This document shows, one piece after another, positions 6,214 through 36,269 of a stretch of 64,000 nt of DNA (its first letter is position 1; every line of letters starts with the position of its first letter). The position numbers were made by a program, and so were the translations under genes. The notes under the pieces were generated by a model. That model was not told where the DNA came from. It searched no databases and was given only the letters and a program-made list of their open reading frames with translations. This DNA is from Escherichia coli (GTDB taxonomy: Bacteria; Pseudomonadota; Gammaproteobacteria; Enterobacterales; Enterobacteriaceae): assembly GCF_022846255.1 (NCBI RefSeq), contig NZ_AP025682.1; one strand, given 5' to 3'.

Positions 6214-7503
6214 ATGAAAGGCACTATCTTCGCCGTAGCGTTGAACCATCGCAGCCAGCTTGATGCATGGCAGGAAGCGTTCCAGCAATCCCCCTACAAA
6301 GCCCCGCCTAAAACTGCGGTCTGGTTTATTAAACCGCGCAATACGGTGATTGGTTGCGGTGAACCGATTCCCTTTCCACAGGGTGAAAAGGTACTGAGCG
6401 GTGCGACAGTTGCGCTGATTGTGGGAAAAACGGCGACGAAAGTACGTGAAGAAGATGCGGCAGAGTACATCGCCGGATATGCGCTGGCTAACGACGTCAG
6501 CCTGCCGGAAGAGAGCTTTTACCGCCCGGCAATCAAAGCAAAATGTCGTGATGGATTCTGCCCCATTGGCGAAACCGTGGCTCTCAGCAATGTCGATAAT
6601 CTGACCATCTATACCGAGATCAACGGGCGTCCTGCCGATCACTGGAACACCGCCGATTTACAACGTAATGCCGCGCAGTTGCTGAGCGCCCTGAGCGAAT
6701 TTGCCACGCTGAATCCAGGCGATGCCATTCTGCTCGGCACGCCACAGGCGCGCGTGGAAATACAGCCAGGCGATCGCGTTCGTGTTCTCGCAGAAGGTTT
6801 CCCGCCACTGGAAAATCCGGTAGTGGACGAACGTGAAGTGACCACGCGCAAGAGCTTCCCAACGCAGCCACACCCGCACGGCACGCTGTTTGCCCTCGGC
6901 CTGAACTACGCCGACCACGCCAGCGAACTGGAATTTAAGCCACCGGAAGAACCGCTGGTGTTCCTGAAAGCGCCGAATACCCTCACGGGCGATAACCAGA
7001 CCTCCGTGCGCCCGAACAATATTGAATACATGCACTACGAAGCGGAGCTGGTGGTAGTTATTGGCAAGCAGGCGCGTAACGTCAGCGAAGCCGATGCCAT
7101 GGATTATGTCGCGGGCTACACCGTGTGTAACGACTACGCCATTCGCGACTATCTGGAAAACTACTACCGCCCTAACCTGCGGGTAAAAAGCCGCGACGGA
7201 CTGACGCCGATGCTTTTAACCATCGTGCCGAAAGAGGCGATCCCGGACCCGCATAATCTGACCCTTCGCACCTTCGTCAACGGCGAGTTACGCCAGCAAG
7301 GCACCACCGCCGATCTGAACTTCAGCGTGCCCTTCCTGATCGCCTACTTAAGCGAATTTATGACCCTGAATCCGGGCGACATGATCGCCACCGGCACACC
7401 AAAAGGCTTATCTGACGTGGTGCCTGGCGATGAAGTAGTGGTGGAAGTCGAAGGCGTGGGCCGCCTGGTGAACCGAATTGTGAGTGAGGAAACAGCGAAA
7501 TGA
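6214..7503 (+). CDS. hpaG: Bifunctional 5-oxopent-3-ene-1,2,5-tricarboxylate decarboxylase / 2-hydroxyhepta-2,4-diene-1,7-dioate isomerase (tandem FAH domains)
   Basis: About 429 aa from ATG at 6214 preceded by GAGGAG RBS; two tandem FAH-like halves; first gene of hpaGEDFHI order. Confidence 0.85.
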   Translation: MKGTIFAVALNHRSQLDAWQEAFQQSPYKAPPKTAVWFIKPRNTVIGCGEPIPFPQGEKVLSGATVALIVGKTATKVREEDAAEYIAGYALANDVSLPEESFYRPAIKAKCRDGFCPIGETVALSNVDNLTIYTEINGRPADHWNTADLQRNAAQLLSALSEFATLNPGDAILLGTPQARVEIQPGDRVRVLAEGFPPLENPVVDEREVTTRKSFPTQPHPHGTLFALGLNYADHASELEFKPPEEPLVFLKAPNTLTGDNQTSVRPNNIEYMHYEAELVVVIGKQARNVSEADAMDYVAGYTVCNDYAIRDYLENYYRPNLRVKSRDGLTPMLLTIVPKEAIPDPHNLTLRTFVNGELRQQGTTADLNFSVPFLIAYLSEFMTLNPGDMIATGTPKGLSDVVPGDEVVVEVEGVGRLVNRIVSEETAK

Positions 7504-19085: not shown

Positions 19086-19289
19086 ATGTTTGGTAACTTA
19101 GGACAGGCAAAAAAATATCTCGGCCAGGCGGCGAAGATGTTGATTGGCATTCCAGACTACGACAACTACGTCGAGCATATGAAGACCAACCATCCCGACA
19201 AGCCGTACATGAGCTATGAAGAATTCTTCCGCGAACGCCAGAACGCGCGCTACGGCGGCGATGGTAAAGGCGGTATGCGCTGTTGTTAA
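19086..19289 (+). CDS. yjiX: Small DUF466-family protein accompanying CstA-like transporters
   Basis: 67 aa; conserved partner gene immediately downstream of btsT. Confidence 0.75.
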
Positions 19290-19299
19290 TGGAGAGAGC

Positions 19300-20256
19300 A
19301 TGAACCCGATTGCAGTTACCCTACTCACCGGTTTTTTAGGCGCGGGCAAAACTACCCTGCTGCGCCATATTCTTAACGAACAACACGGCTACAAGATCGC
19401 CGTGATTGAAAACGAATTCGGCGAAGTCTCCGTTGATGATCAACTGATTGGCGACCGCGCCACGCAGATCAAAACGCTGACCAACGGCTGCATCTGCTGT
19501 TCGCGCTCCAACGAGCTGGAGGACGCACTACTCGACCTGCTGGATAATCTCGACAAGGGCAATATTCAGTTCGACCGTCTGGTCATTGAATGCACCGGCA
19601 TGGCCGATCCTGGCCCGATTATTCAGACCTTTTTCTCCCATGAGATTTTATGCCAGCGCTACCTGCTGGACGGGGTGATTGCACTGGTGGATGCGGTACA
19701 TGCCGATGAGCAGATGAACCAGTTCACCATCGCCCAGTCACAGGTTGGCTACGCCGACCGCATTCTGCTGACCAAAACCGACGTCGCAGGCGAAGCAGAA
19801 AAACTGCGTGAACGCCTGGCGCGCATCAACGCCCGTGCACCGGTCTACACGGTTACCCACGGCGATATCGACCTGGGCCTGCTATTCAACACCAACGGTT
19901 TTATGCTGGAAGAGAACGTGGTCAGCACCAAACCGCGTTTCCACTTTATCGCGGATAAACAAAACGATATTTCGTCGATTGTGGTGGAACTGGATTACCC
20001 GGTAGATATCAGCGAAGTTTCTCGGGTGATGGAAAACCTGCTGCTGGAATCGGCAGATAAACTACTGCGTTACAAAGGGATGCTGTGGATTGACGGCGAA
20101 CCTAACCGCCTGCTGTTCCAGGGCGTTCAGCGCCTCTACAGCGCCGACTGGGACCGCCCGTGGGGCGATGAAAAACCGCATAGCACGATGGTGTTTATCG
20201 GGATTCAGTTGCCAGAGGATGAGATTCGGGCAGCGTTTGCGGGGTTGAGGAAGTAA
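19300..20256 (+). CDS. yjiA: CobW/P47K-family GTPase (zinc-associated)
   Basis: 318 aa from MNPIAVTLLTGFLGAGKTTLL (P-loop) with CICC motif; ATG at 19300 in frame with the longer ORF. Confidence 0.9.
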   Translation: MNPIAVTLLTGFLGAGKTTLLRHILNEQHGYKIAVIENEFGEVSVDDQLIGDRATQIKTLTNGCICCSRSNELEDALLDLLDNLDKGNIQFDRLVIECTGMADPGPIIQTFFSHEILCQRYLLDGVIALVDAVHADEQMNQFTIAQSQVGYADRILLTKTDVAGEAEKLRERLARINARAPVYTVTHGDIDLGLLFNTNGFMLEENVVSTKPRFHFIADKQNDISSIVVELDYPVDISEVSRVMENLLLESADKLLRYKGMLWIDGEPNRLLFQGVQRLYSADWDRPWGDEKPHSTMVFIGIQLPEDEIRAAFAGLRK

Positions 20257-20730: not shown

Positions 20731-21465
20731 TCAAACCTGATAGCAATCCACCAAAAATGCCATCATTTCACTGGCATCTTTGCTGTGATAAAAGCGCACC
20801 ATTTTGCTGTTGAACTCCAGCGCACGAGCTGCGGGTACACTAATGGGATTGTAACCGTGGCGCATTAACCAGCCGTTCATCATATGGCGACTGGTACGCT
20901 TGTTGCCATCAAAGAAAAACTGAAAATAAGCACCAAATAAAAACATTGCCAGCGCCCCTTCGAATGGTGGCATCTCTTTTATTTGTGCCACACCTGCGGC
21001 GAATATTCGATTCAGTTCAGGTGCACCTGCTTCAGTGGCTGGTGGAAAATGAGCGCCCAGTTCACCGAGATGAACGCGCGCATTGTAATGTAACTCTTCA
21101 CCTTCGCCGCGAAAAACGCCCCACTCCAGCGCCTCATTACGCGCAATAATGCCGTTAAGTAACGTGAACGTTTTCTTATCAAGGTCAAAACGCCCGAATT
21201 GCACAAGTTCAATCAGTTTTTTTGCGCTATCTGCCAGGTTCAACACCTGCTCAGTATCACTGACCTTATGCCCGCCAACAGTGACGCCATCGAGCAACGT
21301 TTTAACTTCAACAAAGGTATAGGGGTTATTTTCCAGTTGCGCGGCATCCCAGACAAACCCAGCCATATGCGTTTTGAAGGTAAATAAGGCTGCGCGCGTA
21401 CCGACAATTTGCATCGCCGGGATGGCATTTGCATTCCAGCTCAGGTCCAGTAGTTTGGTTGTCAT
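20731..21465 (-). CDS. Fic/Doc-fold protein with degenerate active-site motif
   Basis: 244 aa; region FQFFFDGNKRTSRHMMNGWLMRHGY aligns to the Fic motif HPFx(D/E)GNGRxxR but has Gln in place of the invariant His and the Doc-type NKR; AAGGA RBS; 43 bp downstream of GmrSD-like gene. Confidence 0.55.
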   Translation of the reverse strand: MTTKLLDLSWNANAIPAMQIVGTRAALFTFKTHMAGFVWDAAQLENNPYTFVEVKTLLDGVTVGGHKVSDTEQVLNLADSAKKLIELVQFGRFDLDKKTFTLLNGIIARNEALEWGVFRGEGEELHYNARVHLGELGAHFPPATEAGAPELNRIFAAGVAQIKEMPPFEGALAMFLFGAYFQFFFDGNKRTSRHMMNGWLMRHGYNPISVPAARALEFNSKMVRFYHSKDASEMMAFLVDCYQV

Positions 21466-21508
21466 TAGAGGATCCTTGATTGCATGGTAAAGTGGATATT
21501 ATTCCATA

Positions 21509-23608
21509 TTAAACCATCGCGTTATCCATCTGCTTTTCAAATGCCTGACGAATTAATCCCATCACATAAGGAAGCTCAGAAAGATCGCTGAAACCTATTT
21601 CAACATCGCCATTGCCCCAACGGCCTATATCTGTGACATCTTTAGCCATACATTTTGGGTCAACCAGTTCATGGAATGGCATATTTAGTGATAAACGTAA
21701 GCGACTTTTTTGCGGCACCACATCAACAAAATTCGTCTCCGCTTTGAAGGCAACATAGAGCTTCAATATTTCTCGCGTAACCCCAGCGTCCAGCGTCATA
21801 ACGGCATCAGAAAGGCTGTCAAAAAGTACGCGGATGTGCGTACCTTCTTCAAGTTGCGGGAAATCAGCAAGGACATATCCCGTTCCTCGTTCAACGACAG
21901 TGCGATAACGAGCCAACACGTCTTCCGAAAGTTTGGGGATCGCCCAGACGTCTATTGCCAGCTCGGACAGACGTTCCGCTCTCTTTTGTATCGCTGCACG
22001 ATCCCATATTTCACATTGCCCTAACCCCGTGTTCAGGCGTAATGGACTTTCCTTAAAGCCACCTTTTATATCTCGTTTCTTCGCAAATGGACGGTCGCTG
22101 TAGCTTGAGTTATAGCCAGTTAACGTTAAATTACCCAACGTATGGAGCCACTTTTTATGGATACGCTTCCATTCCGGACCAAGGTCATCGCGCCACTTCA
22201 CCGATAAATTAGGGTTCTGCGGCATGATATGTTCAATCGTATAAGTGTCAACATAGACCCGTTCTTTACGATCGTGGTTTTCAAATCTGCGTAGCCAATA
22301 GCTGCGATTACGGAAGTTGTAGAGATCGCGAGTTTTCAGTTCACGTTGAAATTCATCATCATCCGGGAAACGACGGTAGGAAGGCAGATCCAGCAAATGC
22401 GCCGCAATGCTCTCCAGATAACGCTCTTTATCCAGCACTTTGTAAAACGTAGCGAAGGTTTTAGTAAATGAGTTGGTGGGAATTGCACAGACTGCGCGCC
22501 GGAAGATATACGACTCAATTAAACGCGTGGCACCTAAAAAATCCGCGGCAGAAAGGATCCCCTGTTTATAGTCGTGATAAAGCACCAACAGGAACGGCCA
22601 TGCAGCATCAACTTTCAGTTCCCGCAGATCCTGAAACGCCATCTTTAAGGTTTTATCCTTTTCGCTATCCAGCGCCATCGCACAAAAATAGTCAGCAAAC
22701 GTACGAATATCCGCAACCAGCGCCTCCATCCCGCTATCTATTACGCCAGGTTTTCGCGCATAGCGTTTAAAGGCTTCATAGACATCACCAATTCGCGGAA
22801 TCTCACCTGTTTTTACCGTCAGGTAATTACGCATAAAACTGTCGAAATAGTCAGTGTATCCCTTCTGACCAAACGCCAGCTCCATGGGCCGCCAGTAATC
22901 GTCGTACAGTTGGCTTTGATGTTCTGGCTCCAGCCCCATCAAAACATAGTTGCGTACTAGATCCGCCTGACTCAGCGCTTTTCCTGTAGAGTTCATGCTT
23001 TCGAAGATAAGTTGCGGATTATCCTGACCGCGATTCAAGGCGACATCCACAATCAGCAGTTTTGAAAGGCCCTGACATAACGCGGTGAAATTGCCGTGGA
23101 GTTTGCCTATTTGCTCATGGAAAAACTCAAAATTCTCTTTCACGCGTAGAGAGCAATTTTCTGCCAGCGGTTTTTGTCTAATCAATGCCAGCAGGCTTTC
23201 TCTGTCCGTTTGCGTAAGCAGTAACTTAAAACCACGCTCGCCTGATTCATACGGATTGAGCAGATAATAGTTTCGTAATTTCATGGCGGAGAAACCATCC
23301 ATCACCTCGTCATCGCCAAGATGTCTGGACAACGCTTCCAGCAATAACATCGCCGTTGTCAGGCGTTGCTGACCGTCAATCACCAGTAATGGCGAAATCC
23401 CCGAAACCTGATATAGGCCCTGTTCGATATACACCACCGAGCCGATGAAATGCGCCGGGATATCATCACGCTGCCCGGCACGTATTACATCGTCCCAGAG
23501 CTGGCGGCACTGTTCCTCTGACCATGAGTAAGTACGCTGATAAATGGGAATAACGAATTGCTGAGAGCGTTTTAGAAAATCGAGTAATCGGGCTTCGGTG
23601 GCTTTCAT
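21509..23608 (-). CDS. GmrSD-like Type IV restriction endonuclease candidate (DUF262 ParB-like NTPase + DUF1524 His-Me finger nuclease)
   Basis: 699 aa; N-terminal IPIYQRTYSW and DGQQRLT motifs (DUF262); C-terminal EHIMPQ...GNLTLTGYNSSYS motif (DUF1524); AGGAG RBS. Confidence 0.75.
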   Translation of the reverse strand: MKATEARLLDFLKRSQQFVIPIYQRTYSWSEEQCRQLWDDVIRAGQRDDIPAHFIGSVVYIEQGLYQVSGISPLLVIDGQQRLTTAMLLLEALSRHLGDDEVMDGFSAMKLRNYYLLNPYESGERGFKLLLTQTDRESLLALIRQKPLAENCSLRVKENFEFFHEQIGKLHGNFTALCQGLSKLLIVDVALNRGQDNPQLIFESMNSTGKALSQADLVRNYVLMGLEPEHQSQLYDDYWRPMELAFGQKGYTDYFDSFMRNYLTVKTGEIPRIGDVYEAFKRYARKPGVIDSGMEALVADIRTFADYFCAMALDSEKDKTLKMAFQDLRELKVDAAWPFLLVLYHDYKQGILSAADFLGATRLIESYIFRRAVCAIPTNSFTKTFATFYKVLDKERYLESIAAHLLDLPSYRRFPDDDEFQRELKTRDLYNFRNRSYWLRRFENHDRKERVYVDTYTIEHIMPQNPNLSVKWRDDLGPEWKRIHKKWLHTLGNLTLTGYNSSYSDRPFAKKRDIKGGFKESPLRLNTGLGQCEIWDRAAIQKRAERLSELAIDVWAIPKLSEDVLARYRTVVERGTGYVLADFPQLEEGTHIRVLFDSLSDAVMTLDAGVTREILKLYVAFKAETNFVDVVPQKSRLRLSLNMPFHELVDPKCMAKDVTDIGRWGNGDVEIGFSDLSELPYVMGLIRQAFEKQMDNAMV

Positions 23609-23892
23609 GAATGACTCCTGTCAAATTGCGCTGGCAAACGGCGTCATTATGCTGCGAATAAAAAATAAAAGTTAGCGTCTTTGTTTCTGCAAAAATACCA
23701 TTCCAGGATAAATCAAAATATATTAAGAAACACCTCAAAACACATTCATTAGAACAATTAATGCTTCCAATATATATTAATAACGCATTGAAAATGATCA
23801 TGTTTTTGATCATCACAACGATAGTTTGATATAACAAAGCATTCACTTCACATTGAATATCCCCCTCTTTTTCAGGGCAAGGAATGCTTTTT

Positions 23893-26238
23893 ATGTCATC
23901 AACTAATTTCAGCCAGATTGCAGCCTTCCTGTGGTCTGTCGCCGACCTGTTACGCGGCGATTTTAAACAATCACAATATGGGCGAATTATTCTCCCTTTC
24001 ACTCTTCTTCGTCGTCTGGAATGCGTACTCGAAACAACGAAAGACGCGGTCATTGCTGAGGCGCAAAAAGTAAAAGCCATGAAACTACCAGAGGACGCTC
24101 AGGAGAAAATGATCCTGCGGGCGACCAATGGCCTCACGTTCTTTAACGCCTCAGCGATGGACCTCAGCAAAATGGGGCAAAATGGCATACAGGACAACCT
24201 GGAAAACTATATCCAGTCGTTCTCTTCGGATGCCCGAGAAATTTTCGAACACTTCAAGTTCAGCGAATTTGTCGGGCAGCTCGCTGATGCGAACTTACTG
24301 TTCAAAGTGGTGCAAATATTCGCTAAAGCAGATTTATACCCCGGGCGCGTCACCAACCACGACATGGGGCTGGTGTTTGAGGAGCTGATCCGACGTTTTG
24401 CAGAGAGTTCTAACGAAACCGCCGGGGAACACTTTACCCCGCGTGATATAGTCAATCTGACCACCTCGCTGGTGTTTTTCGATGATGATGATGCACTCAA
24501 TAAAGACGGCATCATCCGCACCATTTACGACCCAACAGCAGGAACCGGCGGCTTTCTCTCTTCCGGCATGGAGTACGTCCACAAACAAAACCCCAATGCC
24601 GTGATGCGCGCGTTTGGTCAGGAGTTAAACCCGGAATCCTACGCCATCTGCAAAGCCGACATGCTGATTAAGGGCCAGGACGTCAGCCTTATCAAACTCG
24701 GCAACACCCTTTCCAACGATCAACTCCCCACAGAAAAATTCGATTACATGCTCTCTAACCCACCTTTCGGCGTGGACTGGAAAAAGATCGAAGGCGACAT
24801 CAACGACGAGCACAAACTCAAAGGTGCTGATGGCCGCTTTGGCCCCGGCCTGCCCCGCGTCTCCGACGGTTCGTTGCTGTTTCTGCTGCACCTGATCAGC
24901 AAAATGCGCGATGCCAAAAGCGGTGGTGGGCGGATCGGCATCATTCTTAATGGCTCTCCGTTATTCACCGGCGGCGCGGGCAGCGGTGAAAGCGAGATCC
25001 GCCGCTACATTCTGGAAGCGGATTTGCTGGAAGGCATTATCGCCCTGCCCACCGACATGTTTTACAACACCGGTATCGCTACCTATGTGTGGATTTTGTC
25101 GAATAAAAAAGCGCCAGAGCGCAAGGGCAAAGTCCAGCTTATCGACGCTAGCAACCTGTGCGGCAAGATGCGTAAATCGCTGGGGTCAAAACGCAATATT
25201 CTCGGGGAGGAGGATATTGGTTTAATCACCCGCACGTTTGGCGATTTCGAATTCGTTGCCACCACCACGCTTGCGGCGTTAGGCCTGGAGAAAGCACCCG
25301 AACAAAAATCCAGCCGGGGACGCCAGCCCGCAACAACCAAAACCGAGGCGGCAAAAACCTTTGCCAGCAAAGTCTTTCACAGCACCGAGTTTGGCTATCG
25401 TCGCATCACCGTTGAACGCCCGTTACGCCTGTCGGCTCAGATCACCGATGACGCCATTGCCACATTGCTCTTTGCGCCGAAGCCGTTTAACGCTCCGATG
25501 GCGCAACTGTATGACGCCTTTGCTTTCCAGTGGCAGGACGGTAATTACGGCGACTTAACAGAGATAGAAAGTGAAGCCCGCGCCATTCTTAAAGCCGATT
25601 TTAGCGAGCTGAAAGAGAAGCAAATTAAAGATCTGCTCGACAGCAAATTATGGCTGGTCCAGCGCGGATTAATGGAAAAAGCGCGGCGTATTCAGGCGGC
25701 GATGGGTATGCAGGCGGGCGGCAAAGATACCGTTAGCAATGACTTTAATCAGTTCCAGTTGACGCTGAAAGAGGCGTTCAAAACCGCAGGCGTGAAGCTG
25801 GATGCGAAAGAGAACAAGCAGTTTATTGATGCCATTACCCGCAAAAACCCGGACGCCGAGCCGGTAGTCAGCAAGGTACTGAAAGAAGCGGCCCAACCGC
25901 TGTATGGCGCGTGTGAGTACAACGGAAAGGTTGTGGAGTTTGAGCCGGATGGCGACCTGCGTGATAACGAGAATGTGCCGTTAAATCCGGCGGTATCTAC
26001 CAGCGAGTTGATCGAGGGTTACTTCAAAGCAGAAGTGTTACCGCACGCCGCGGATGCGTGGATTAACGCCGATAAACGCGATGCGAAAGATGGGGATATC
26101 GGGATTGTGGGGTATGAAATTCCGTTTAATCGCCATTTTTATGTTTATACACCGCCGCGACCGTTGGAGGAGATTGATGCTGATTTGGATGCGGTAAGCG
26201 CTGAGATTATGAAACTGTTGCAGGAGGTACATTCCTGA
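23893..26238 (+). CDS. hsdM: Type I restriction-modification DNA methyltransferase subunit M (with long C-terminal extension)
   Basis: About 781 aa; motif [11 protein letters not shown] and motif IV NPPFG present; start taken at second ATG (23893) with AAGGA RBS; stop overlaps hsdS start. Confidence 0.9.
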
Positions 26239-27503
26239 TGGCGGGGTTAAATAAGTATCGGGCGTATCCGGAGTACAAGGATTCTGGGGTGGAGTGGTTG
26301 GGGGAGATACCAGTCCATTGGAATATAAATCGGTTAGGACATTTTTTTGAGGAACGTAGAGAAAAGGTTAGTGATAAGGATTTCCCAGCATTATCAGTCA
26401 CAATGCAAGGGATTGTTCCTCAGCTTGAAACAGCAGCTAAAACGGATGCTGGAGACAATCGTAAATTAGTTTTAAAAGATGATTTTGTAATAAATAGTCG
26501 TTCTGACAGAAAAGGTTCAGCCGGTGTATCTCGGTTAAATGGCTCTGTTTCATTAATTAGCATAGTCATGCAACCAAAAAAAATAAATGTCAATTTTGCC
26601 CATCACCTACTCCGAAGCTATCCCTTCCAGGAAGAGTTTTATCGCTATGGGAAAGGAATCGTAGCAGATCTGTGGAGCACTAATGCCTCCGAGATGAAAA
26701 ATATACTACTCCCTGAAATTCCTGGCAGCGAAAGTGAAAATATTGCAAATTTTCTCAACTATGAAACCGCAAAAATCGATATCCTGATCGAGAAACAACA
26801 ACAACTTATTGAACTGCTGAAAGAAAAACGTCAGGCCGTGATTAGCCATGCGGTGACCAAAGGGCTAAATCCTGATGTGCCGATGAAAGATTCTGGGGTT
26901 GAGTGGTTGGACGAAATCCCTGAACACTGGAGGATATGCAAATTAAAAAACCTAGCTAAAATATGTAATGGACAGGATTATAAACTCGTTCAAGCAGAAA
27001 CCGGTTATCCAGTAATAGGCTTCGGGGGGCAGTTTGCATGGGCGAATACTTTTCTATATGATAAACCATCAGTCCTCTTGGGTAGAAAGGGTACAATTGA
27101 TAAACCATTGTATATAGACAAGGCATTTTGGACCGTCGATACAATGTATTACACGGAAGTATTTGATTGCATTATAGAGAAATATTTATATTATTTAGCA
27201 CTGACAATTCAGTTTAATCGTTATGCAACTAATACCGCACTGCCTAGTATGACTCAAGAACACTTAGGTAATTACTCATTTTCATTGTCATTCAACCTCA
27301 GTGAGCAAAAACTAATAATTAATAGCATTGAAAAATCATTAATTAAAATAGATGCCCTAACCGAAAAACAGTTAAAACAAATCGAACTCCTCAAAGAACG
27401 CCGCACCGCCCTTATCTCCGCCGCCGTCACCGGCAAAATAGATCTCCGCAACTGGACCGCCCCCATCGCCAAAACGGAAGCACCCACGGAGGCCAGCGCA
27501 TGA
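26238..27503 (+). CDS. hsdS: Type I restriction-modification specificity subunit S
   Basis: 421 aa; two AT-rich target-recognition domains separated by conserved repeats (KDSGVEWLGEIPVHW / KDSGVEWLDEIPEHW; LLKEKRQAVIS / LLKERRTALIS); TGATG overlap with hsdM. Confidence 0.85.
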   Translation: MAGLNKYRAYPEYKDSGVEWLGEIPVHWNINRLGHFFEERREKVSDKDFPALSVTMQGIVPQLETAAKTDAGDNRKLVLKDDFVINSRSDRKGSAGVSRLNGSVSLISIVMQPKKINVNFAHHLLRSYPFQEEFYRYGKGIVADLWSTNASEMKNILLPEIPGSESENIANFLNYETAKIDILIEKQQQLIELLKEKRQAVISHAVTKGLNPDVPMKDSGVEWLDEIPEHWRICKLKNLAKICNGQDYKLVQAETGYPVIGFGGQFAWANTFLYDKPSVLLGRKGTIDKPLYIDKAFWTVDTMYYTEVFDCIIEKYLYYLALTIQFNRYATNTALPSMTQEHLGNYSFSLSFNLSEQKLIINSIEKSLIKIDALTEKQLKQIELLKERRTALISAAVTGKIDLRNWTAPIAKTEAPTEASA

Positions 27504-30500
27504 GCAACGACATTACAAAAGAGCTCAACCTGCAAAACGACATCATCGCCCAGATGGTGGAAAAAGGCTGGATTGTCGGCAAAGGTGACGGCTACGACCG
27601 GGAACGTGCGCTATACGCACAAGACGTTCTGCACTTTGTGCAAACCACCCAACCGCAAGAGTGGGAGAAATTCGCCCGCGTTTACCCCAACGACAACGAA
27701 CGCCATTTCCTCGACGCGCTGGTTGCGCAGTTAAAAAAAGCCGACAGCAACGCCACCGACATCCAGACGCGCACCTGGGGTACGCTCGGCGTACTTCGCC
27801 ACGGACTGAAAATCCGCAATGCCCGTTTTTCGCTGTGTCAGTTTAAACCGGAACATAATCTCAACCCGGAAACGCTGGCGCGCTATCAGCAGAATATCTG
27901 CCGTATCGTGCCGGAACTGGTCTACAGCCCATATGCCTCAAATAGCGTCTTTGCAGAAACGGGCGTGAAAGCCAAAAAATGGCGCATCGACCTGGTGCTG
28001 TTTATCAACGGCCTGCCAATTGCCACGCTGGAGCTGAAATCCGAATTCAAACAGGCGGTGCAGAACGCCATTGCGCAGTACAAAAAGACCCGCCTGCCGA
28101 AAGATCCCGCCACCAATAAACCGGAACCGCTGCTGACCTTTAAGCGCGGCGCGCTGGTGCATTTTGCCGTCAGCCAGTATGACGTCTTTATGACCACCAA
28201 ACTCGCGGGTGACAGCACCTTCTTCCTGCCGTTTAACAAAGGCACCAAAGACGGAGGCGCAGGCAACGAGATCCCCGAAGATACCCACCGCTACGCCACC
28301 GATTATCTGTGGAATGAAGTGCTGCTGCCGGACAACTTATTAAAAATCCTCGCCAGTTTTGTCCATTTGCAGATTGAAGAAAAAGAGGACTGGAACGGGC
28401 TGAAAGCGAAGAAAGAGAGCCTGATTTTCCCGCGTTATCACCAGTGGGATGTGGTCAACAAACTGCTGGAGGCCGCAACGGTCGAAGGCACCGGCCATAA
28501 ATACCTGATCCAGCACAGCGCCGGTTCCGGTAAATCGAACTCCATTGCCTGGACCGCCCACCAGCTTTCTCGTCTGTACGACGTGAACGGGGAAAAACAG
28601 TTCCACTCCGTTATCGTGGTGACGGACCGCACGGTGCTGGACGACCAGCTTCAGGACACCATCTGGCAGTTCGAACATGCCGACGGCGTGGTCGGGCGCA
28701 TCAATAACAGAGAGGGCGACGGCTCTAAATCGGAAAAGCTCGCCAACGCGCTGGAAAACTCGCAGCCGATAATCATCGTCACCATCCAGACATTCCCGTT
28801 CGTGCTGAAAGCCATCGAAAACAGCGTCAGCCTGAAGCAGCGTAAATACGCGGTGATTGCCGACGAAGCACACTCCTCGCAGAGCGGTTCTACCGCCCGT
28901 CAGCTTAAAGAAGTGCTGATGAGCGAAGAAATGGATGATGACGTGGTACTGTCGTCAGAAGATATCCTGGATGCGACCATTGCCGCCCGGAAAGGCAGCA
29001 GTAACCTGAACTACTACGCCTTTACCGCCACGCCAAAATCCAAAACCCTCGAACTTTTTGGTCGCCGCCCACGTCCCGATGAACCGGCGTCAAAAACCAA
29101 TAAACCTGAGGCCTTCCACGTCTACTCCATGCGCCAGGCAATCGAAGAAGGCTTTATCCTCGATGTGCTGAAAAACTACACCAACTACAAAGTGGCGTAT
29201 CAGTTGTTGCAAAAGCTGGAAGACAAAGACCGCGAGGTCGATAGCAAACGGGCGAAGATTAAGCTCAACCAGTGGGTGACACTGCACGACCACAATATCT
29301 CGCAGAAGGTGAAGGTGATTGTGGATCACTTCCGCAAACATGTGATGCACCTGCTTGGTGGCCAGGCCAAAGCGATGGTGGTCACCAGTTCACGCAAAGC
29401 CGCTGTGCGCTACAAGCTGGCGTTTGATAAATACATTAGCGAGAACAATTACCAGAAAATCAGCGCGATGGTGGCATTTTCCGGGGAAGTTGAATTCCAG
29501 GAAGGCGACCATAACAGCCTGGCATTGTTAAACCAGAAATTTACTGAAATAAACATGAACCCCGGCCTGAAAGGGCGGGATATGCGCAAAGCCTTCGACA
29601 GCGACGATTATCAGGTGATGTTGGTCGCCAATAAATTCCAGACCGGTTTTGACCAGCCAAAGCTGTGCGCAATGTACGTGGATAAACCCCTCGGTGGCGT
29701 CGAGTGTGTCCAGACGCTTTCCCGCCTGAACCGCACCTATCCGGGCAAAGCGGAATCAGGCACTTTTGTCCTCGATTTTATCAACGATCCGGGCGAGATC
29801 CTCAAGGCATTCCAGCCCTATTACCAGACGGCGGAACTGACCGATGTCAGCGATCCGCAGCAGGTATTCGATCTGTTTGAAAAACTGCGCGCCACGCAGA
29901 TTTTCCAGTGGCATGAAGTCGAGCAGTTCTGCGAGGCATACTTCATCAAAAATAAATCGAATGCGGCGATCAGTAATATCTGCAAACCGGCGGTAGAACG
30001 CTGGAAAAAGCGTTATCTGATGGCGATAGACGCCTATTTGACCGCCAAAGAGATGTTCGAGCGCACCAAAAAAACGGGCGATACGGTGTTAATCACCAAT
30101 GCGGAAAACAGTTTTAAAGCCTGTAAGCAGGAGAAAGATCGCCTGGAAATATTCAAAAAGGATCTCGGCAGCTTTGTTCGCTTTTATGAATTTATGTCGC
30201 AGATCGTCGAGTACGATGACAAAGATCTGGAAAAACTGAGCCTGTTTGCCCGCCATTTGCGTCCGCTGCTGCATGAACAACGTCTGGAAGAGGATGAGGT
30301 TGATCTCAGTAACGTGGAGATCAGTCACTATCGCTTATCGAAAATCCATGAACAAGATTTACGCTTACAGGAAGAAACACCTGACTATACGCTGGATGCA
30401 AGTAATGATATTGGTACGGCAAAAGCGAAAGATAAAAAAGAGGAGTTTTTATCGCAGGTGCTTTCTCGGATGAATGAATTATTCATTAGCGACCATTTGA

Positions 30501-30763
30501 CCGACAAAGATATGATCAGCAATGCTTTTTCGGTGTATAACAAAATAACTGAAAATGAAAATGTTATGACACAAATTAATAATAATCCGCCAGAACAAGC
30601 TATTCTTGGTGATTTCCTCCAGGCAGTTGATAATGCTGTAATGGACAGTAATGACGCTCGACAAGAATTTATGTTGCAATATTTATCCGATCCAGTTCGG
30701 GCAAAGGGCTTTGCTTATCTGATGTTTGATATGCTAACGGGGAAAATTGCTTTGCCAACATGA
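27500..30763 (+). CDS. hsdR: Type I restriction enzyme R subunit (endonuclease/helicase)
   Basis: 1087 aa; N-terminal PD-(D/E)xK-like LELKSE region, Walker A GSGKS, DEAH box VIADEAHSSQ; ATGA overlap with hsdS. Confidence 0.9.
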   Translation: MSNDITKELNLQNDIIAQMVEKGWIVGKGDGYDRERALYAQDVLHFVQTTQPQEWEKFARVYPNDNERHFLDALVAQLKKADSNATDIQTRTWGTLGVLRHGLKIRNARFSLCQFKPEHNLNPETLARYQQNICRIVPELVYSPYASNSVFAETGVKAKKWRIDLVLFINGLPIATLELKSEFKQAVQNAIAQYKKTRLPKDPATNKPEPLLTFKRGALVHFAVSQYDVFMTTKLAGDSTFFLPFNKGTKDGGAGNEIPEDTHRYATDYLWNEVLLPDNLLKILASFVHLQIEEKEDWNGLKAKKESLIFPRYHQWDVVNKLLEAATVEGTGHKYLIQHSAGSGKSNSIAWTAHQLSRLYDVNGEKQFHSVIVVTDRTVLDDQLQDTIWQFEHADGVVGRINNREGDGSKSEKLANALENSQPIIIVTIQTFPFVLKAIENSVSLKQRKYAVIADEAHSSQSGSTARQLKEVLMSEEMDDDVVLSSEDILDATIAARKGSSNLNYYAFTATPKSKTLELFGRRPRPDEPASKTNKPEAFHVYSMRQAIEEGFILDVLKNYTNYKVAYQLLQKLEDKDREVDSKRAKIKLNQWVTLHDHNISQKVKVIVDHFRKHVMHLLGGQAKAMVVTSSRKAAVRYKLAFDKYISENNYQKISAMVAFSGEVEFQEGDHNSLALLNQKFTEINMNPGLKGRDMRKAFDSDDYQVMLVANKFQTGFDQPKLCAMYVDKPLGGVECVQTLSRLNRTYPGKAESGTFVLDFINDPGEILKAFQPYYQTAELTDVSDPQQVFDLFEKLRATQIFQWHEVEQFCEAYFIKNKSNAAISNICKPAVERWKKRYLMAIDAYLTAKEMFERTKKTGDTVLITNAENSFKACKQEKDRLEIFKKDLGSFVRFYEFMSQIVEYDDKDLEKLSLFARHLRPLLHEQRLEEDEVDLSNVEISHYRLSKIHEQDLRLQEETPDYTLDASNDIGTAKAKDKKEEFLSQVLSRMNELFISDHLTDKDMISNAFSVYNKITENENVMTQINNNPPEQAILGDFLQAVDNAVMDSNDARQEFMLQYLSDPVRAKGFAYLMFDMLTGKIALPT

Positions 30764-30828
30764 AAATACGTTGATAGCCGGGGTCGCACTTTCTACCCCG
30801 GCCATATTATTTGCAATAAGGAATAGCT

Positions 30829-31542
30829 ATGCTGAAGATGATTAAAGATTTTAAATTCAAAAAATACATTAAAAAATTACGTGAAGAAGGTTTGTTTTTT
30901 TATGTTTCTTTCGGGTTTATATTAACATTGTTAATGGAAGTTGATGACCGATTACCGTACTATCTTCAACAAGACTTCTTTTTTGATACACTTATAGGAT
31001 TTATGCCAATCAATATACTCTTTGTTTTGATTTGCATAAATGCATTTTTCATTTTCGTCCACACACTTATTTCACCTTATAAAGGTCAAAGAGTTGGTGA
31101 GAAATTTCTCTCTGAACTTGATAAAAGAACGCAACAAATTGGCTTTATTATTTCATTCATATGTTTTGGCATGACATTGTTTTGTGCTCTGGCGTGGTTG
31201 CTGTTTTTTGAGATGAATACTGAAAGTTACTACGCAAAATATACATTAGATTTTTTGGCTGTTTTTATCATTATGATTATGTTTTCTTCAGCAGTTAATC
31301 CAGTCATGAGAAGAATATTCCAAAAAATGAAGGAATCGGACTCACATGGAAATTCAAAAATAATTCTTATAATTATAATCATTACATTATTGCTACTATT
31401 ACCAATTGCGTGCATTATCAATAAAAATAAAACAATTGAAATCAATATTAAGAAAGAAACTTATCAGCAAATAAAAGAAAAAACAAAGATGAAACCAGAA
31501 GATTATATCAAAAAATTGATTGCTGATATTAAATTCAACTAA
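30829..31542 (+). CDS. Hypothetical polytopic membrane protein (AT-rich, orphan)
   Basis: 237 aa; about 5 predicted TM helices; very AT-rich with atypical codon usage; AAGGAA RBS; no similarity recognised to any named family. Confidence 0.55.
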   Translation: MLKMIKDFKFKKYIKKLREEGLFFYVSFGFILTLLMEVDDRLPYYLQQDFFFDTLIGFMPINILFVLICINAFFIFVHTLISPYKGQRVGEKFLSELDKRTQQIGFIISFICFGMTLFCALAWLLFFEMNTESYYAKYTLDFLAVFIIMIMFSSAVNPVMRRIFQKMKESDSHGNSKIILIIIIITLLLLLPIACIINKNKTIEINIKKETYQQIKEKTKMKPEDYIKKLIADIKFN

Positions 31543-31958: not shown

Positions 31959-33371
31959 ATGACGCGTTATCAACATCTGGCGACTCTACTTGCCGAGCGG
32001 ATTGAGCAAGGGCTGTATCGTCACGGGGAGAAATTGCCGTCGGTGCGCAGCTTAAGTCAGGAGCACGGCGTCAGTATTAGCACCGTGCAGCAGGCGTACC
32101 AGACGCTGGAGACGATGAAGCTCATCACTCCGCAGCCGCGTTCGGGTTATTTTGTCGCACAACGTAAAGCCCAGCCGCCAGTACCGCCGATGACGCGTCC
32201 GGTGCAGCGCCCGGTGGAAATTACCCAGTGGGATCAAGTGCTGGATATGCTGGAGGCGCATAGCGACAGTTCCATTGTTCCGTTAAGTAAAAGCACGCCG
32301 GATGTCGAAACGCCCAGCCTGAAACCGCTGTGGCGGGAGCTAAGCCGGGTGGTGCAGCATAATCTGCAAACCGTTCTCGGTTATGACTTGTTAGCCGGTC
32401 AGCGAGTGTTGCGAGAGCAGATTGCCCGCCTGATGCTCGACAGCGGCTCGGTGGTCACCGCCGATGACATCATTATCACCAGCGGCTGCCATAACTCGAT
32501 GTCGCTGGCGTTAATGGCGGTATGTAAACCGGGCGATATTGTCGCAGTCGAATCCCCCTGTTATTACGGTTCAATGCAGATGCTGCGCGGTATGGGCGTG
32601 AAAGTGATTGAAATCCCAACCGATCCAGAAACTGGCATCAGCGTTGAAGCGCTGGAACTGGCGCTGGAACAGTGGCCGATTAAAGGCATCATTCTGGTGC
32701 CAAACTGTAATAATCCGCTGGGATTTATTATGCCGGACGCACGCAAACGGGCCGTTCTCTCTCTCGCTCAGCGTCATGATATTGTGATTTTTGAAGATGA
32801 TGTCTACGGCGAACTGGCGACGGAGTATCCGCGCCCGCGGACCATTCATTCCTGGGATATCGACGGGCGAGTGCTGCTGTGCAGCTCGTTCAGTAAAAGT
32901 ATTGCACCTGGCCTGCGCGTGGGTTGGGTCGCACCGGGGCGTTATCACGATAAACTGATGCATATGAAATACGCCATCAGCAGCTTTAATGTGCCGTCCA
33001 CGCAAATGGCGGCGGCAACGTTTGTGCTGGAAGGTCACTATCATCGCCATATCCGGCGGATGCGGCAGATCTATCAGCGCAATCTGGCACTTTATACCTG
33101 CTGGATACGGGAATATTTTCCCTGCGAAATCTGTATTACGCGCCCGAAAGGCGGATTTTTACTGTGGATAGAATTGCCTGAACAGGTCGATATGGTCTGC
33201 GTCGCGCGGCAGCTGTGCCGCATGAAAATCCAGGTGGCAGCAGGCTCGATTTTCTCAGCTTCCGGCAAATACCGTAATTGTCTGCGCATCAACTGCGCTT
33301 TGCCGCTCAGCGAAACCTATCGCGAAGCACTGAAGCAAATTGGCGAAGCCGTGTATCGGGCAATGGAATGA
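31959..33371 (+). CDS. yjiR: MocR-family transcriptional regulator (GntR HTH + PLP-dependent aminotransferase-like domain)
   Basis: 470 aa; N-terminal GntR-type HTH, C-terminal fold-type I aminotransferase-like region. Confidence 0.85.
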   Translation: MTRYQHLATLLAERIEQGLYRHGEKLPSVRSLSQEHGVSISTVQQAYQTLETMKLITPQPRSGYFVAQRKAQPPVPPMTRPVQRPVEITQWDQVLDMLEAHSDSSIVPLSKSTPDVETPSLKPLWRELSRVVQHNLQTVLGYDLLAGQRVLREQIARLMLDSGSVVTADDIIITSGCHNSMSLALMAVCKPGDIVAVESPCYYGSMQMLRGMGVKVIEIPTDPETGISVEALELALEQWPIKGIILVPNCNNPLGFIMPDARKRAVLSLAQRHDIVIFEDDVYGELATEYPRPRTIHSWDIDGRVLLCSSFSKSIAPGLRVGWVAPGRYHDKLMHMKYAISSFNVPSTQMAAATFVLEGHYHRHIRRMRQIYQRNLALYTCWIREYFPCEICITRPKGGFLLWIELPEQVDMVCVARQLCRMKIQVAAGSIFSASGKYRNCLRINCALPLSETYREALKQIGEAVYRAME

Positions 33372-33485
33372 ATTCAAAATAGTGGCGAGCCCCCTGATTT
33401 CCTCTCACGAATAGCGTGTGACTCGTTTTATCTTTGCAGGGTCATCTCCACGTTCCAGCATGGCTTAGGCAAAATGCGCTTCGTT

Positions 33486-33586
33486 CATGCCGGATGCCAT
33501 GTGAACGCCTTACCAGGTCTACAAAATTTTTAAAGTTCAATATATTAAATGGGTTATGTAGACCTGATAAGCGTAGCGCATCAGGG
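33486..33586. repeat. Pair of inverted REP elements (BIME-like)
   Basis: GCCGGATGCCATGTGAACGCCTTACCAGGTCTAC and GTAGACCTGATAAGCGTAGCGCATCAGG units in opposite orientation. Confidence 0.5.
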
Positions 33587-33613
33587 TGCTTTGCGTTTGT
33601 CATCAGTCTCTGA

Positions 33614-34570
33614 TTAGTACTCGATCCATGGATCGCGCTTGCTTTCAGGCAAGGGCTGATCTAATGCCTGCATTTGCTCTGCCGAAAGTCCGGTATATCG
33701 TTGTATCCATTCAGGATCCGCCCCATTCTGCAACAACAATCGGAGGAGGCTCTTTTCCCCTTCTTCTTTCCCTTCTTTCCTCCCCCTCTCCCTTCCCAAT
33801 AGCCATCCATCATTATGAATTCGCTCTGCAATCGTCATTATTCGCTCCCTGTGTTGTGGCATTCGACTGGTTAGTTCGCTGATAAACTCTTTAAAACTCG
33901 CTTCATCGCCAGCCAGTAAAATGTAATTTAACAGCGCAGTTATCTGGCTGTCATTAGCACACTCTGTAACCAGTAATACTACCAGTTGGTCAATAAGCCC
34001 CATCAGATCGCGCTGGCGAATATGCTTTTGGATCAACTCCAACAGGGCGACTCTGCGATGCTGCACAATCTCGTCGTCTGGCACGACAGTGATATCCACC
34101 AGCGGGAACGCGGCGGTATAAAGCTTCCGTGCGGTAGTTGGGTCGGCAAATTCGTCCAGCCAGCACAAAGACCAGGGATAAGGGCTACGGCTACCGTGAT
34201 AAAACAGCATCGGGATGACCAGCGGTAGCTGCCGGCGTTTATCATGTTCGATATGGCGCTGCATCACCGCCATGGAATATCGCATCAGACGAAAGGCCAT
34301 ATGAATATCCTCACGGCTCTGATGTTCAATCACTACATAAATATAGCCATCGCCTTCACGGGTCTTTACCGACCACAGAATATCGGAATGTAGCGCCCGC
34401 AATTTTTCATCGACAAAGCTGGCGGATTCCAGTTTTAAGCTATCGAGATCGCACAGTTCACGTAAATCTTTGGGTAAGTGGATCTCCATAAAATCCCGCG
34501 CGGTGTCAGAGTGTGTGAGAAAGGATTTAAATAATGCGTCATGCGGCGTGCTGGTCGTAAAGTTTGTCAT
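33614..34570 (-). CDS. rpnD: Rpn-family recombination-promoting nuclease (PD-(D/E)xK, transposase_31-like)
   Basis: 318 aa starting [18 protein letters not shown] typical of YhgA/Rpn proteins; position corresponds to yjiP/yjiQ of E. coli K-12. Confidence 0.75.
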
Positions 34571-35036
34571 GGCGATCCGTCACCTGTAGATAAGATGGCC
34601 CAACTTTAGCGACTAACAAAGCCATTCACACCTGGCTATTTCCTATTCCCCGAGGCGGTTTCCAGGCTATTTTTATTCTTCTGCAAACGATACATTTTTC
34701 CGGAAACAGGCTCGCATTTTACATTTCCTGTACCCGGCAGATATTCCCCTTTCCACCGCACTCTTTTGATTAACCGCAAATTTTAATTACACTTAAGGTG
34801 TATATTTTCTATGCAACCCATCAATTCAAGAGGTGTAATGTGCTGATGACTATTTGTAATCGTTATACATTCTGACCCGAAGTCAGAAGGTATTTCTCTG
34901 TCTGTGTGTTCACAGGCAGTGTGGTTGATTACATGAAATTCAGTACATTTGTCCTTCTCGCCTGCCTTTCGTCATTACCGACGGTATTGAATTTCGTTTT
35001 CCCCATTGGGGTTCTCCGGACAAGGAGTAGTTTGTT

Positions 35037-36269
35037 ATGCCACGTTTTTTTGCCCGCCATGCCGCCACGCTGTTTTTCCCGATGGCGTTGATTTTGTATG
35101 ACTTTGCTGCGTATCTGTCGACGGACCTGATCCAGCCAGGGATCATTAATGTGGTCCGTGATTTTAATGCCGATGTCAGTCTGGCCCCGGCTGCCGTCAG
35201 TCTCTATCTCGCTGGAGGCATGGCATTGCAGTGGCTGCTGGGGCCGCTTTCCGACAGGATTGGCCGCAGGCCGGTGCTGATTAACGGGGCGTTAATTTTT
35301 ACCCTTGCCTGCGCCGCGACAATGTTCACCACGTCAATGACACAATTTCTTATCGCGCGTGCAATTCAGGGCACCAGTATCTGTTTTATTGCCACCGTTG
35401 GTTATGTCACGGTGCAGGAGGCGTTCGGACAGACAAAAGGGATCAAGTTGATGGCGATTATCACCTCCATCGTACTGATTGCGCCGATTATCGGCCCGCT
35501 TTCCGGCGCAGCTCTGATGCACTTTATGCACTGGAAAGTCCTTTTTGCCATCATTGCGGTTATGGGTTTTATCTCATTTGTCGGCTTGCTGCTGGCGATG
35601 CCAGAGACGGTGAAGCGCGGCGCGGTTCCGTTTAGCGCCAAAAGCGTCTTGCGCGATTTTCGTAATGTCTTTTGCAATCGGCTGTTCCTCTTTGGCGCAG
35701 CAACCATCTCTTTAAGCTATATCCCGATGATGAGCTGGGTGGCTGTCTCGCCGGTGATCCTTATCGATGCAGGCGGCTTAACAACTTCGCAGTTCGCCTG
35801 GACACAGGTTCCGGTGTTCGGCGCGGTGATTGTCGCGAATGCCATCGTGGCGCGTTTCGTTAAAGATCCGACCGAACCGCGGTTTATCTGGCGTGCCGTA
35901 CCCCTTCAACTGGTCGGCCTCTCGCTGTTGATTATCGGCAATCTGCTGTCGCCGCACGTCTGGCTGTGGTCGGTGCTGGGCACCAGTCTGTATGCTTTCG
36001 GGATTGGTTTGATTTTCCCGACCTTATTCCGCTTTACGCTGTTTTCCAATAACTTACCGAAAGGGACCGTCTCCGCATCGCTAAATATGGTGATCCTGAT
36101 GGTGATGTCTGTCTCGGTCGAAATCGGCCGCTGGCTGTGGTTTAACGGCGGTCGCTTGCCGTTTCATCTGTTAGCCGTTTTAGCGGGCGTTATCGTCGTT
36201 TTCACCCTGGCGGGATTGCTCAATCGCGTGCGCCAGCATCAGGCAGCCGAGCTAGTGGAGGAGCAGTGA
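35037..36269 (+). CDS. mdtM: MFS multidrug efflux transporter
   Basis: 410 aa 12-TM MFS protein; sequence matches MdtM (YjiO) as recalled. Confidence 0.9.

Follow-up and report, generated by a model that had tools for sequence, protein, structure and literature searches.

What does an intact rpnD do at a locus where Escherichia coli K-12 carries a broken copy, beside a variable island of restriction and defense genes? The question arises from an initial annotation of the window, the 64,000-nucleotide stretch of E. coli contig NZ_AP025682.1 analyzed here, which proposed that an active Rpn nuclease next to the island could contribute to its recombinational turnover. The analysis shows an ordinary intact copy of an already known gene in its usual state. 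[quoted passage not shown] Published work (Kingston 2015, 2017; Zhong 2023; 2025 EcoSal review) already covers the gene and its family, the stop codon in K-12, how prevalent intact copies are, and the idea of island recombination.

The initial annotation described a continuous 318-residue Rpn-family ORF, and the ORF list bears this out, with one minus-strand frame running from an ATG at position 34570 to a stop codon at 33614–33616. The Pfam profile PF04754 (Transposase_31/YhgA-like) aligns to residues 8–210 over 202 of its 203 positions (E = 4.5e-86; 288 bits with a cutoff of 21), and the NCBIfam model TIGR01784 (Rpn family recombination-promoting nuclease/putative transposase) scores 170.8 bits with a cutoff of 52.1. 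Two NCBIfam equivalog models stay under their cutoff of 583 bits, RpnA at 374 bits and PRK09956 ("ISNCY family transposase") at 390 bits. As judged from these profiles, rpnD is no chance ORF and is a full-length member of the Rpn PD-(D/E)xK nuclease family. The exact 318-residue protein is already in RefSeq and GenBank (WP_137501638.1 and BDH35005.1, E. coli TRECRb50), and its 90%-identity cluster holds 3,918 member sequences.

The names of two of these profiles, Transposase_31 and the ISNCY family transposase, would suggest that rpnD encodes the transposase of a mobile element resembling an insertion sequence. The score for the latter model is below its cutoff, however, and the interval 33372–35036 has no terminal inverted repeats or target-site duplications save a REP pair and a 14-nucleotide inverted pair inside the ORF. 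The rpnD locus is present in 4,259 of 5,426 complete E. coli genomes as one copy at a fixed syntenic site, with a median of one place per genome and 4,288 of 4,290 places on the chromosome; synteny was seen in the sampled genomes examined. For the Rpn family, Zhong et al. saw no sign that its members transpose autonomously (PMC10400941). A transposase is thus highly improbable, and we reject it on the sub-cutoff equivalog score, the absence of ends, and the single syntenic copy.

The gene order yjiS, yjiR (31959–33371), rpnD, mdtM (35037–36269), and yjiN is the order found at K-12 rpnD (NC_000913.3) and in strain YZLc4-1. Protein identity likewise marks the gene as the RpnD orthologue, at 91% to K-12 RpnD as against 56% to RpnA and 61% to RpnB, the three proteins compared. 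The REP element and mdtM that had been placed on either side of the gene are both there. The REP element (33558–33586, minus strand) lies 28 nucleotides 3′ of the rpnD stop codon and has two mismatches to a REP consensus, with 0 chance matches expected; inverted arms lie at 33509–33526 and 33554–33571. Another REP consensus gave no site within three mismatches, and Rfam returned sub-threshold matches only. A hairpin in the rpnD 3′ untranslated region has a folding energy of −12.9 kcal/mol (z = −1.65). The features of the locus are collected in Table 1.

Table 1. Features of the rpnD locus in the window and repeat-tract alleles of the gene
Feature	Position	Strand	Basis or detail
rpnD full-length coding sequence (RpnD_L, toxin/nuclease form)	33614..34570	−	318 aa + stop; ORF, PF04754, TIGR01784, exact protein match
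Predicted internal in-frame ORF rpnD_S (M245–Y318, antitoxin form)	33614..33838	−	74 aa + stop; M245 aligned to RpnA M244
Transposase_31/YhgA-like domain with PD-(D/E)xK core	33941..34549	−	Pfam span, residues 8–210
Catalytic codon D11	34538–34540	−	alignment with RpnA, RpnB
Catalytic codon D63	34382–34384	−	alignment with RpnA, RpnB
Catalytic codon E82	34325–34327	−	alignment with RpnA, RpnB
Catalytic codon Q84	34319–34321	−	alignment with RpnA, RpnB
Catalytic codon R94	34289–34291	−	alignment with RpnA, RpnB
Catalytic codon D165 (PDDE)	34076–34078	−	alignment with RpnA, RpnB
Codon 104, CAG (Gln) in window, TAG (amber) in K-12	34259..34261	−	alignment, K-12 ORFs, translation
Candidate internal sigma-70 promoter, ATGACA-18 nt-TAAATT with extended TG, ~90 nt upstream of internal ATG	33925..33954	−	weak consensus scan
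Shine-Dalgarno-like AGGGAG, 6 nt upstream of internal ATG	33845..33850	−	sequence; kept in K-12 and YZLc4-1
Hypervariable purine-rich tract of 4-aa repeats, including 36 bp absent from K-12	33749..33805	−	indel and allele series
Inverted REP-like pair (BIME-like) between rpnD stop and yjiR	33488..33586	.	REP match and inverted arms
Repeat tract, 306-aa allele			YIKGEQR
Repeat tract, 310-aa allele			WLLGREEGEQH
Repeat tract, 314-aa allele			WLLGMEKGKEEGEQR
Repeat tract, 318-aa allele (window)			19 residues
Repeat tract, 321-aa allele			WLLGREEGRSEGKEEGKEEGEQR

The initial annotation described the K-12 locus as a split pseudogene, and this is accurate. The annotation of NC_000913.3 gives rpnD (b4584, 4568998..4569918, 921 bp) as a pseudogene, and PGAP labels the gene in K-12 derivatives "internal stop." DNA alignment of the window with K-12 yjiP/yjiQ locates the disruption at codon 104 as a single C>T change (CAG>TAG), which splits the frame into ORFs of 103 residues (yjiP) and 190 residues (yjiQ). 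What breaks the K-12 frame is a nonsense mutation rather than a frameshift. Apart from this, the two genes differ in length solely by 36 bp, an in-frame indel within the C-terminal repeat tract that gives the window exactly three four-residue units more than K-12. Because APEC O1 strain E16002 carries the K-12-length allele, annotated as intact and encoding a protein equal to that of K-12 except for Gln104, the indel is allelic variation and no lesion. The K-12 amber codon is lineage-specific, and it removes the toxin while leaving the antitoxin ORF. Kingston et al. (2015) had already found YjiP to be complete in most E. coli and to be interrupted in K-12 by a stop codon that a point mutation created (PMC4498929).

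We judged the intactness of rpnD elsewhere in the species with lesion-specific probes and a sample of 18 annotated genomes. By annotation the gene is intact in 12 of the 15 sampled genomes that are not K-12, with products of 318, 314, or 306 residues. The exact 63-mer that spans the K-12 amber codon occurs in 338 of the 5,426 genomes; the eight 100%-identity matches listed include the K-12 laboratory strains ER1709, MG1655, JM83, and MC4100, and one chicken isolate. Other lineages have lost the gene by other routes. O157:H7 has a 25-bp tandem duplication just past the internal ATG that causes a +1 frameshift (its junction is found in 279 genomes), E. coli B has an IS1 insertion directly after codon 255, and O145 strain RM9873 has a stop at codon 40. 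Some database alleles have in-frame deletions within the nuclease part. Intact rpnD is therefore the norm and K-12 the exception, and the recurrent loss in K-12, O145, O157:H7, and B shows that the gene is dispensable. The contrast between an intact gene here and a broken one in K-12, to which the initial annotation had drawn attention, is real; it is less noteworthy than it appeared, being published and reflecting the usual state of the gene in E. coli.

Does the intact frame encode a working nuclease? Kingston et al. (2017) mutated RpnA and found every phenotype abolished by D11A, D63A, E82A, or Q84K, altered behavior with R94A or Q84A, and hyperactivity with D165A, a change within the PDDE motif (PMC5350276). 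When the window protein is aligned with K-12 RpnA and RpnB, residues D11, D63, E82, Q84, R94, and P164-D165-D166-E167 are invariant, with Q84 occupying the lysine position of the PD-(D/E)xK motif. All positions probed in RpnA are thus present, and the nuclease motif carries no inactivating substitution, in keeping with the intactness first claimed for the ORF. An AlphaFold2 model built from a 20-sequence alignment is of low confidence (mean pLDDT 57.7, pTM 0.37) and too weak for a fold search. Its order of elements (strands 40–47, 64–70, and 76–84, helix 91–109, and strand 117–124) is compatible with an alpha-beta-beta-beta-alpha-beta core in which D63 opens one strand and E82 and Q84 fall in the following one.

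An intact frame could still be silent or decaying, on its way to the pseudogene state of K-12, O145, O157:H7, and B. Four independent inactivations in a small sample and the nuclease-part deletions in database alleles would fit such a course, as would the consensus promoter scan, which gave no convincing promoter for full-length rpnD. The substitution pattern, however, speaks of a maintained function. Across codons 1–210, Nei-Gojobori comparisons of the window gene with five divergent alleles give dN/dS of 0.05–0.09 at dS of 0.16–0.23; a sixth comparison, with strain 2779, was uninformative because that allele is nearly identical to the window over these codons. Purifying selection on the nuclease core is thus strong, and the alleles compared are old. 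The catalytic residues are moreover all kept in every intact allele checked, and the high share of intact genes among the sampled non-K-12 genomes runs the same way. We therefore regard decay as unlikely.

The function best suited to a maintained nuclease of this family comes from the work of Zhong et al. (2023), who described rpn loci as genes within genes in which the full-length RpnL is a toxic DNA endonuclease (PMC10400941). Translation from an internal start in the same frame, on transcripts that come mostly from an internal promoter, yields a small C-terminal protein, RpnS, which binds and blocks RpnL (PMC10400941). The two proteins share a helix of four-residue repeats; the repeat count differs from strain to strain, and inhibition requires equal counts in both proteins. 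The repeats, each of one hydrophobic residue with charged residues or glycine, start 8–20 residues after the internal methionine (PMC10400941). Inhibition of the long protein by the small one was reported for RpnA, RpnB, and RpnC only, and RpnS proteins are specific for their own RpnL (PMC10400941). The plasmid-borne RpnP2 protects against T-even phages, and antiphage activity was reported for RpnP2 only (PMC10400941). Mg2+-dependent DNA endonuclease activity was measured with purified RpnA only.

The window gene carries the sequence features of such a system. The codon for M245 (ATG at 33836–33838) is invariant in the alignments with RpnA and RpnB and is aligned with M244, the internal-start methionine of RpnA. 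Judged by sequence, an internal ATG in frame, preceded by a good ribosome-binding site, occupies exactly the place of the internal start of RpnA: AGGGAG and M245 correspond in position to the ribosome-binding site and internal start (K240/E241/M244) that were mutated in RpnA (PMC10400941). In K-12, Ribo-RET shows peaks of in-frame internal initiation in all five rpn genes, rpnD included. Immunoblots of MG1655 detected all five RpnS proteins, among them RpnD_S (PMC10400941). RpnD_L was not detected in MG1655, as would be expected because of the amber codon in K-12. An internal transcription start has been cited for all rpn genes (PMC10400941). The candidate internal promoter in the window, whose sequence is identical in K-12, is a lead only, as the scan that gave it performed at the chance rate (3 sites with 3.0 expected).

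Residues 17–60 of RpnD_S have a weak phmmer match to the RpnA_S crystal chain 7TH0 (E = 0.0035, 44 of 49 residues), and the low-confidence AlphaFold2 model places C-terminal helices at 238–261, 267–281, and 286–302. A Pfam search with the isolated RpnS peptide returned nothing significant. The top PDB matches were designed ankyrin repeats, which we rejected as RpnS homologues; only a short LLLxNGADP motif is common to them and RpnS, and no stretch is individually significant. A precomputed PF27070 annotation is present on relatives.

From the characterized paralogs RpnA, RpnB, RpnC, and RpnP2 and from overexpression of repaired K-12 RpnD, we predict that RpnD_L would act as a Mg2+-dependent DNA endonuclease of low sequence specificity and that in excess it would cause DNA damage, SOS induction, and cell death. 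By analogy with the paralogs, the 74-residue RpnD_S would arise as a separate, more abundant product of the internal start, and it would bind RpnD_L through the common helical repeat region and block it. Because the same DNA encodes both proteins, their repeat numbers would always be matched. Were the toxin set free, as might happen when a phage infects the cell, the outcome could be a defense of the abortive-infection type. A search of PADLOC-DB 2.0.0 found no model that matches RpnD; the date of the library accounts for this result, which is no evidence against a defense role.

How does this predicted system relate to the island beside it? A variable island occupies 20731–31542, and rpnD lies about 2 kb from its border. 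Between yjiA (19216–20256) and yjiS the window encodes a Fic-like ORF, a GmrSD type IV enzyme, and type I hsdM/S/R. The GmrSD enzyme and the type I restriction-modification system, at 21509–30763, make the gene a neighbor of a variable restriction and defense island, as had been proposed. The island is the ICR, with contents unlike those of K-12. The 2025 EcoSal review sets the boundaries of the ICR at yjiA and yjiN and counts rpn among its toxin–antitoxin systems.

The idea that natively expressed, intact RpnD drives replacement or turnover of this island is an explicit hypothesis of Kingston et al. (2015), who overexpressed repaired K-12 YjiP (YjiPc) and saw toxicity, SOS induction, and, in recA-deficient recipients, a roughly 5-fold rise in RecA-independent recombination, with replacements that span the ICR among the events (PMC4498929). 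Besides the closeness of rpnD to the island border, the idea can draw on the divergence of the gene, which is greater (94% and 85% identity to K-12 in its two parts) than that of its flanks (97–98%) and which, together with the mosaic makeup of the window allele, indicates that recombination occurs here. Deletion of rpnA–D left basal recombination unchanged, a result that counts against a native role; for rpnD, however, this K-12 test is silent because the K-12 copy is already a pseudogene. [quoted passage not shown] The lineages with broken rpnD (K-12, B, and O157:H7) still have diverse islands. Finally, the co-encoded antitoxin would be expected to hold the nuclease inactive under normal conditions, and for this reason a turnover role is not favored. 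Of the role in island turnover first suggested for this gene, the stimulation of recombination by overexpressed protein stands, and the targeting of the ICR is not supported. We consider native RpnD unlikely as a driver of turnover, and a toxin–antitoxin and antiphage nuclease checked by an internally translated antitoxin appears to be the better-supported function.

Variation among alleles bears on how this toxin–antitoxin gene evolves. The four-residue repeat tract begins 12 residues after M245, within the published range. The alleles compared have from 0 to 5 units, giving proteins of 306, 310, 314, 318, and 321–322 residues in steps of four. At the DNA level the repeats are degenerate; TRF gives a weak period-12 signal at 33758–33784 and also a period-9 signal, with scores of 33–36. 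About 1,503 genomes match the internal-start-plus-repeat segment of the window over at least 80% of its 106 nucleotides. The best DNA match to rpnD as a whole is 96.6%, and the flanking genes are 97–98.6% identical to those of other E. coli genomes; the low identity reflects allelic diversity at rpnD, and an origin of the window in an Escherichia other than E. coli is rejected on the flanks and on the exact RefSeq protein match. Identity to K-12 is 94.4% over the N-terminal part of the gene and about 85% over the RpnS part, as against 98.4% for yjiR, 97.6% for mdtM, and 97.0% for yjiN. The dN/dS of the C-terminal cassette is 0.58–0.70.

Up to about residue 220 the window protein is the same as that of strain 2779, down to the rare residues S21 and Q114. 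Its RpnS part matches those of Nissle 1917 and Ec394-330266 at 100% identity. This makes the allele a mosaic, with an N-terminal part of the 2779 type and an RpnS of the Nissle type, a combination found in neither strain. Such a mosaic fits a tentative description of rpnD as a gene of two modules, a conserved nuclease and a fast-evolving antitoxin/oligomerization cassette, which recombination near the internal start would reshuffle. The repeat tract may in addition be a fragile hotspot at which lineages repeatedly disable the system, as by the duplication in O157:H7 and the IS1 insertion in B; in K-12 and O145 the loss may affect the toxin alone and leave the antitoxin as an orphan. Taken as a whole, this description is possible, and we would place it on the less likely side.

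Among the closest known systems, K-12 RpnD, or repaired YjiPc, lies at the same yjiR–rpnD–mdtM locus and has the catalytic residues and the internal start in common with it. It differs from the window gene in having the amber codon in place of Gln104, in a repeat tract that is 12 residues shorter, in ten amino acids within residues 1–244, and in its C-terminal cassette (~85% nucleotide identity, dN/dS ~0.7). RpnA (YhgA) has D11, D63, E82, Q84, R94, PDDE, and the internal methionine at corresponding positions, but in K-12 it lies at a different chromosomal locus and is without the inserted four-residue repeats and a 13-residue C-terminal extension. The plasmid-encoded RpnP2_LS belongs to the same family and by inference has the same gene-within-gene architecture, whereas protection against T-even phages was reported for it only.

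Though of little weight as a discovery, the intact gene is of some modest use as a reminder. K-12 naturally lacks the RpnD toxin while still encoding its antitoxin, and for that reason deletion experiments in K-12 are silent on native RpnD_L. Strains with an intact rpnD, like the source of this window, are the right background in which to look for phage defense or recombination at native levels of RpnD. The rpnD allele series is a clean natural example of the hypervariability of the four-residue repeats of Rpn proteins. Should native RpnD, placed at the border of the ICR, prove to work as an antiphage system, most work on rpnD in K-12 will have been done in a natural toxin-null background, and the number of repeats could set the specificity of the system or serve to evade phage anti-defense.

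By sequence comparison, the rpnD allele of the window (33614-34570) is of mosaic origin. Over the first ~220 residues its product is identical to that of strain 2779, including the rare residues S21 and Q114; the C-terminal RpnS part, the predicted antitoxin, is identical to that of Nissle 1917 and Ec394. This arrangement suggests that the nuclease and antitoxin modules have been joined by recombination within the gene.

Elsewhere in the species, rpnD has been broken close to the internal start codon of the antitoxin and the hypervariable repeat tract. O157:H7 strain ECP19-2498 (positions 312-1269 of its rpnD locus, L007) carries a 25-bp tandem duplication (ATTGCAGAGCGAATTCATAATGA..) directly 3' of the internal ATG, at the equivalent of window ~33800-33838. 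The resulting +1 frameshift destroys the antitoxin ORF as well as the C terminus of full-length RpnD, and a probe search found the duplication junction sequence in 279 complete genomes. In E. coli B-LamR (positions 1-1366 of locus L009), an IS1 element lies right behind codon 255 (HNDG), where the repeat tract begins, at the equivalent of window ~33805. The IS1 insertion in B and the duplication in O157:H7 arose independently, so two separate lesions lie only a few codons from the hypervariable site.

A segment of RpnS, RpnD residues ~275-290 (window 33700-33745, minus strand), resembles the ankyrin-repeat consensus, and a PDB sequence search with RpnS placed designed ankyrin proteins above the true homologue, 7TH0. 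The likeness is confined to a short motif, and none of the matched stretches in that search was individually significant. Downstream of rpnD, between two REP-like elements, an Rfam match to the sRNA ES036 (CssrF) lies at 33523-33565 on the plus strand; with 28.8 bits (E = 0.013) it stays below the gathering score, 37.6, and it is probably REP-related.

The surroundings of rpnD vary as well. The gene content of the immigration control region at window 20731-31542 is unlike that of K-12 and is listed in the table. In strains 2779 and 1296KP, mdtM is absent, with yjiN directly following rpnD, and yjiR is truncated or absent; strain 2779 also has a partial gene for a DUF262-domain (GmrSD-type) protein just past rpnD. 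In some lineages, then, rearrangement has also affected the border of the island and the sequences flanking rpnD.

Genes of the immigration control region in the window
Feature	Position	Strand
Fic-like ORF	20731-21465	-
GmrSD type IV enzyme, DUF5655 at C terminus	21509-23608	-
Type I R-M HsdM, 784 aa, unusually long	23884-26238	
Type I R-M HsdS	26238-27503	
Type I R-M HsdR	27500-30763	
Membrane ORF, low GC (36-39%), weak DUF898 match	30829-31542	

Two lineages have nonsense mutations confined to the nuclease part of rpnD, at codon 40 in O145 RM9873 and at codon 104 in K-12. Because the RpnD_S ORF is still whole in both, these strains represent natural "orphan antitoxin" states. Among the database alleles, P0005, P0013, P0022, P0024, P0029, P0032, P0047, and P0051 keep the reading frame but have deletions or short duplications in the nuclease part; in P0032, for example, the strand bearing E82-x-Q84 is missing, and in P0051 residues ~117-157 are deleted. 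Such in-frame changes look like toxin-inactivating events that spare RpnS.

The K-12 stop (positions 7308-7310 of locus L001; window 34259-34261) is an amber codon in place of a Gln codon. The glnV44 (supE44) suppressor carried by common laboratory strains inserts Gln at UAG, so such strains would remake the exact wild-type long form. From what is generally known of supE44, glnV44 derivatives of K-12 would therefore contain wild-type RpnD_L at suppressor efficiency.
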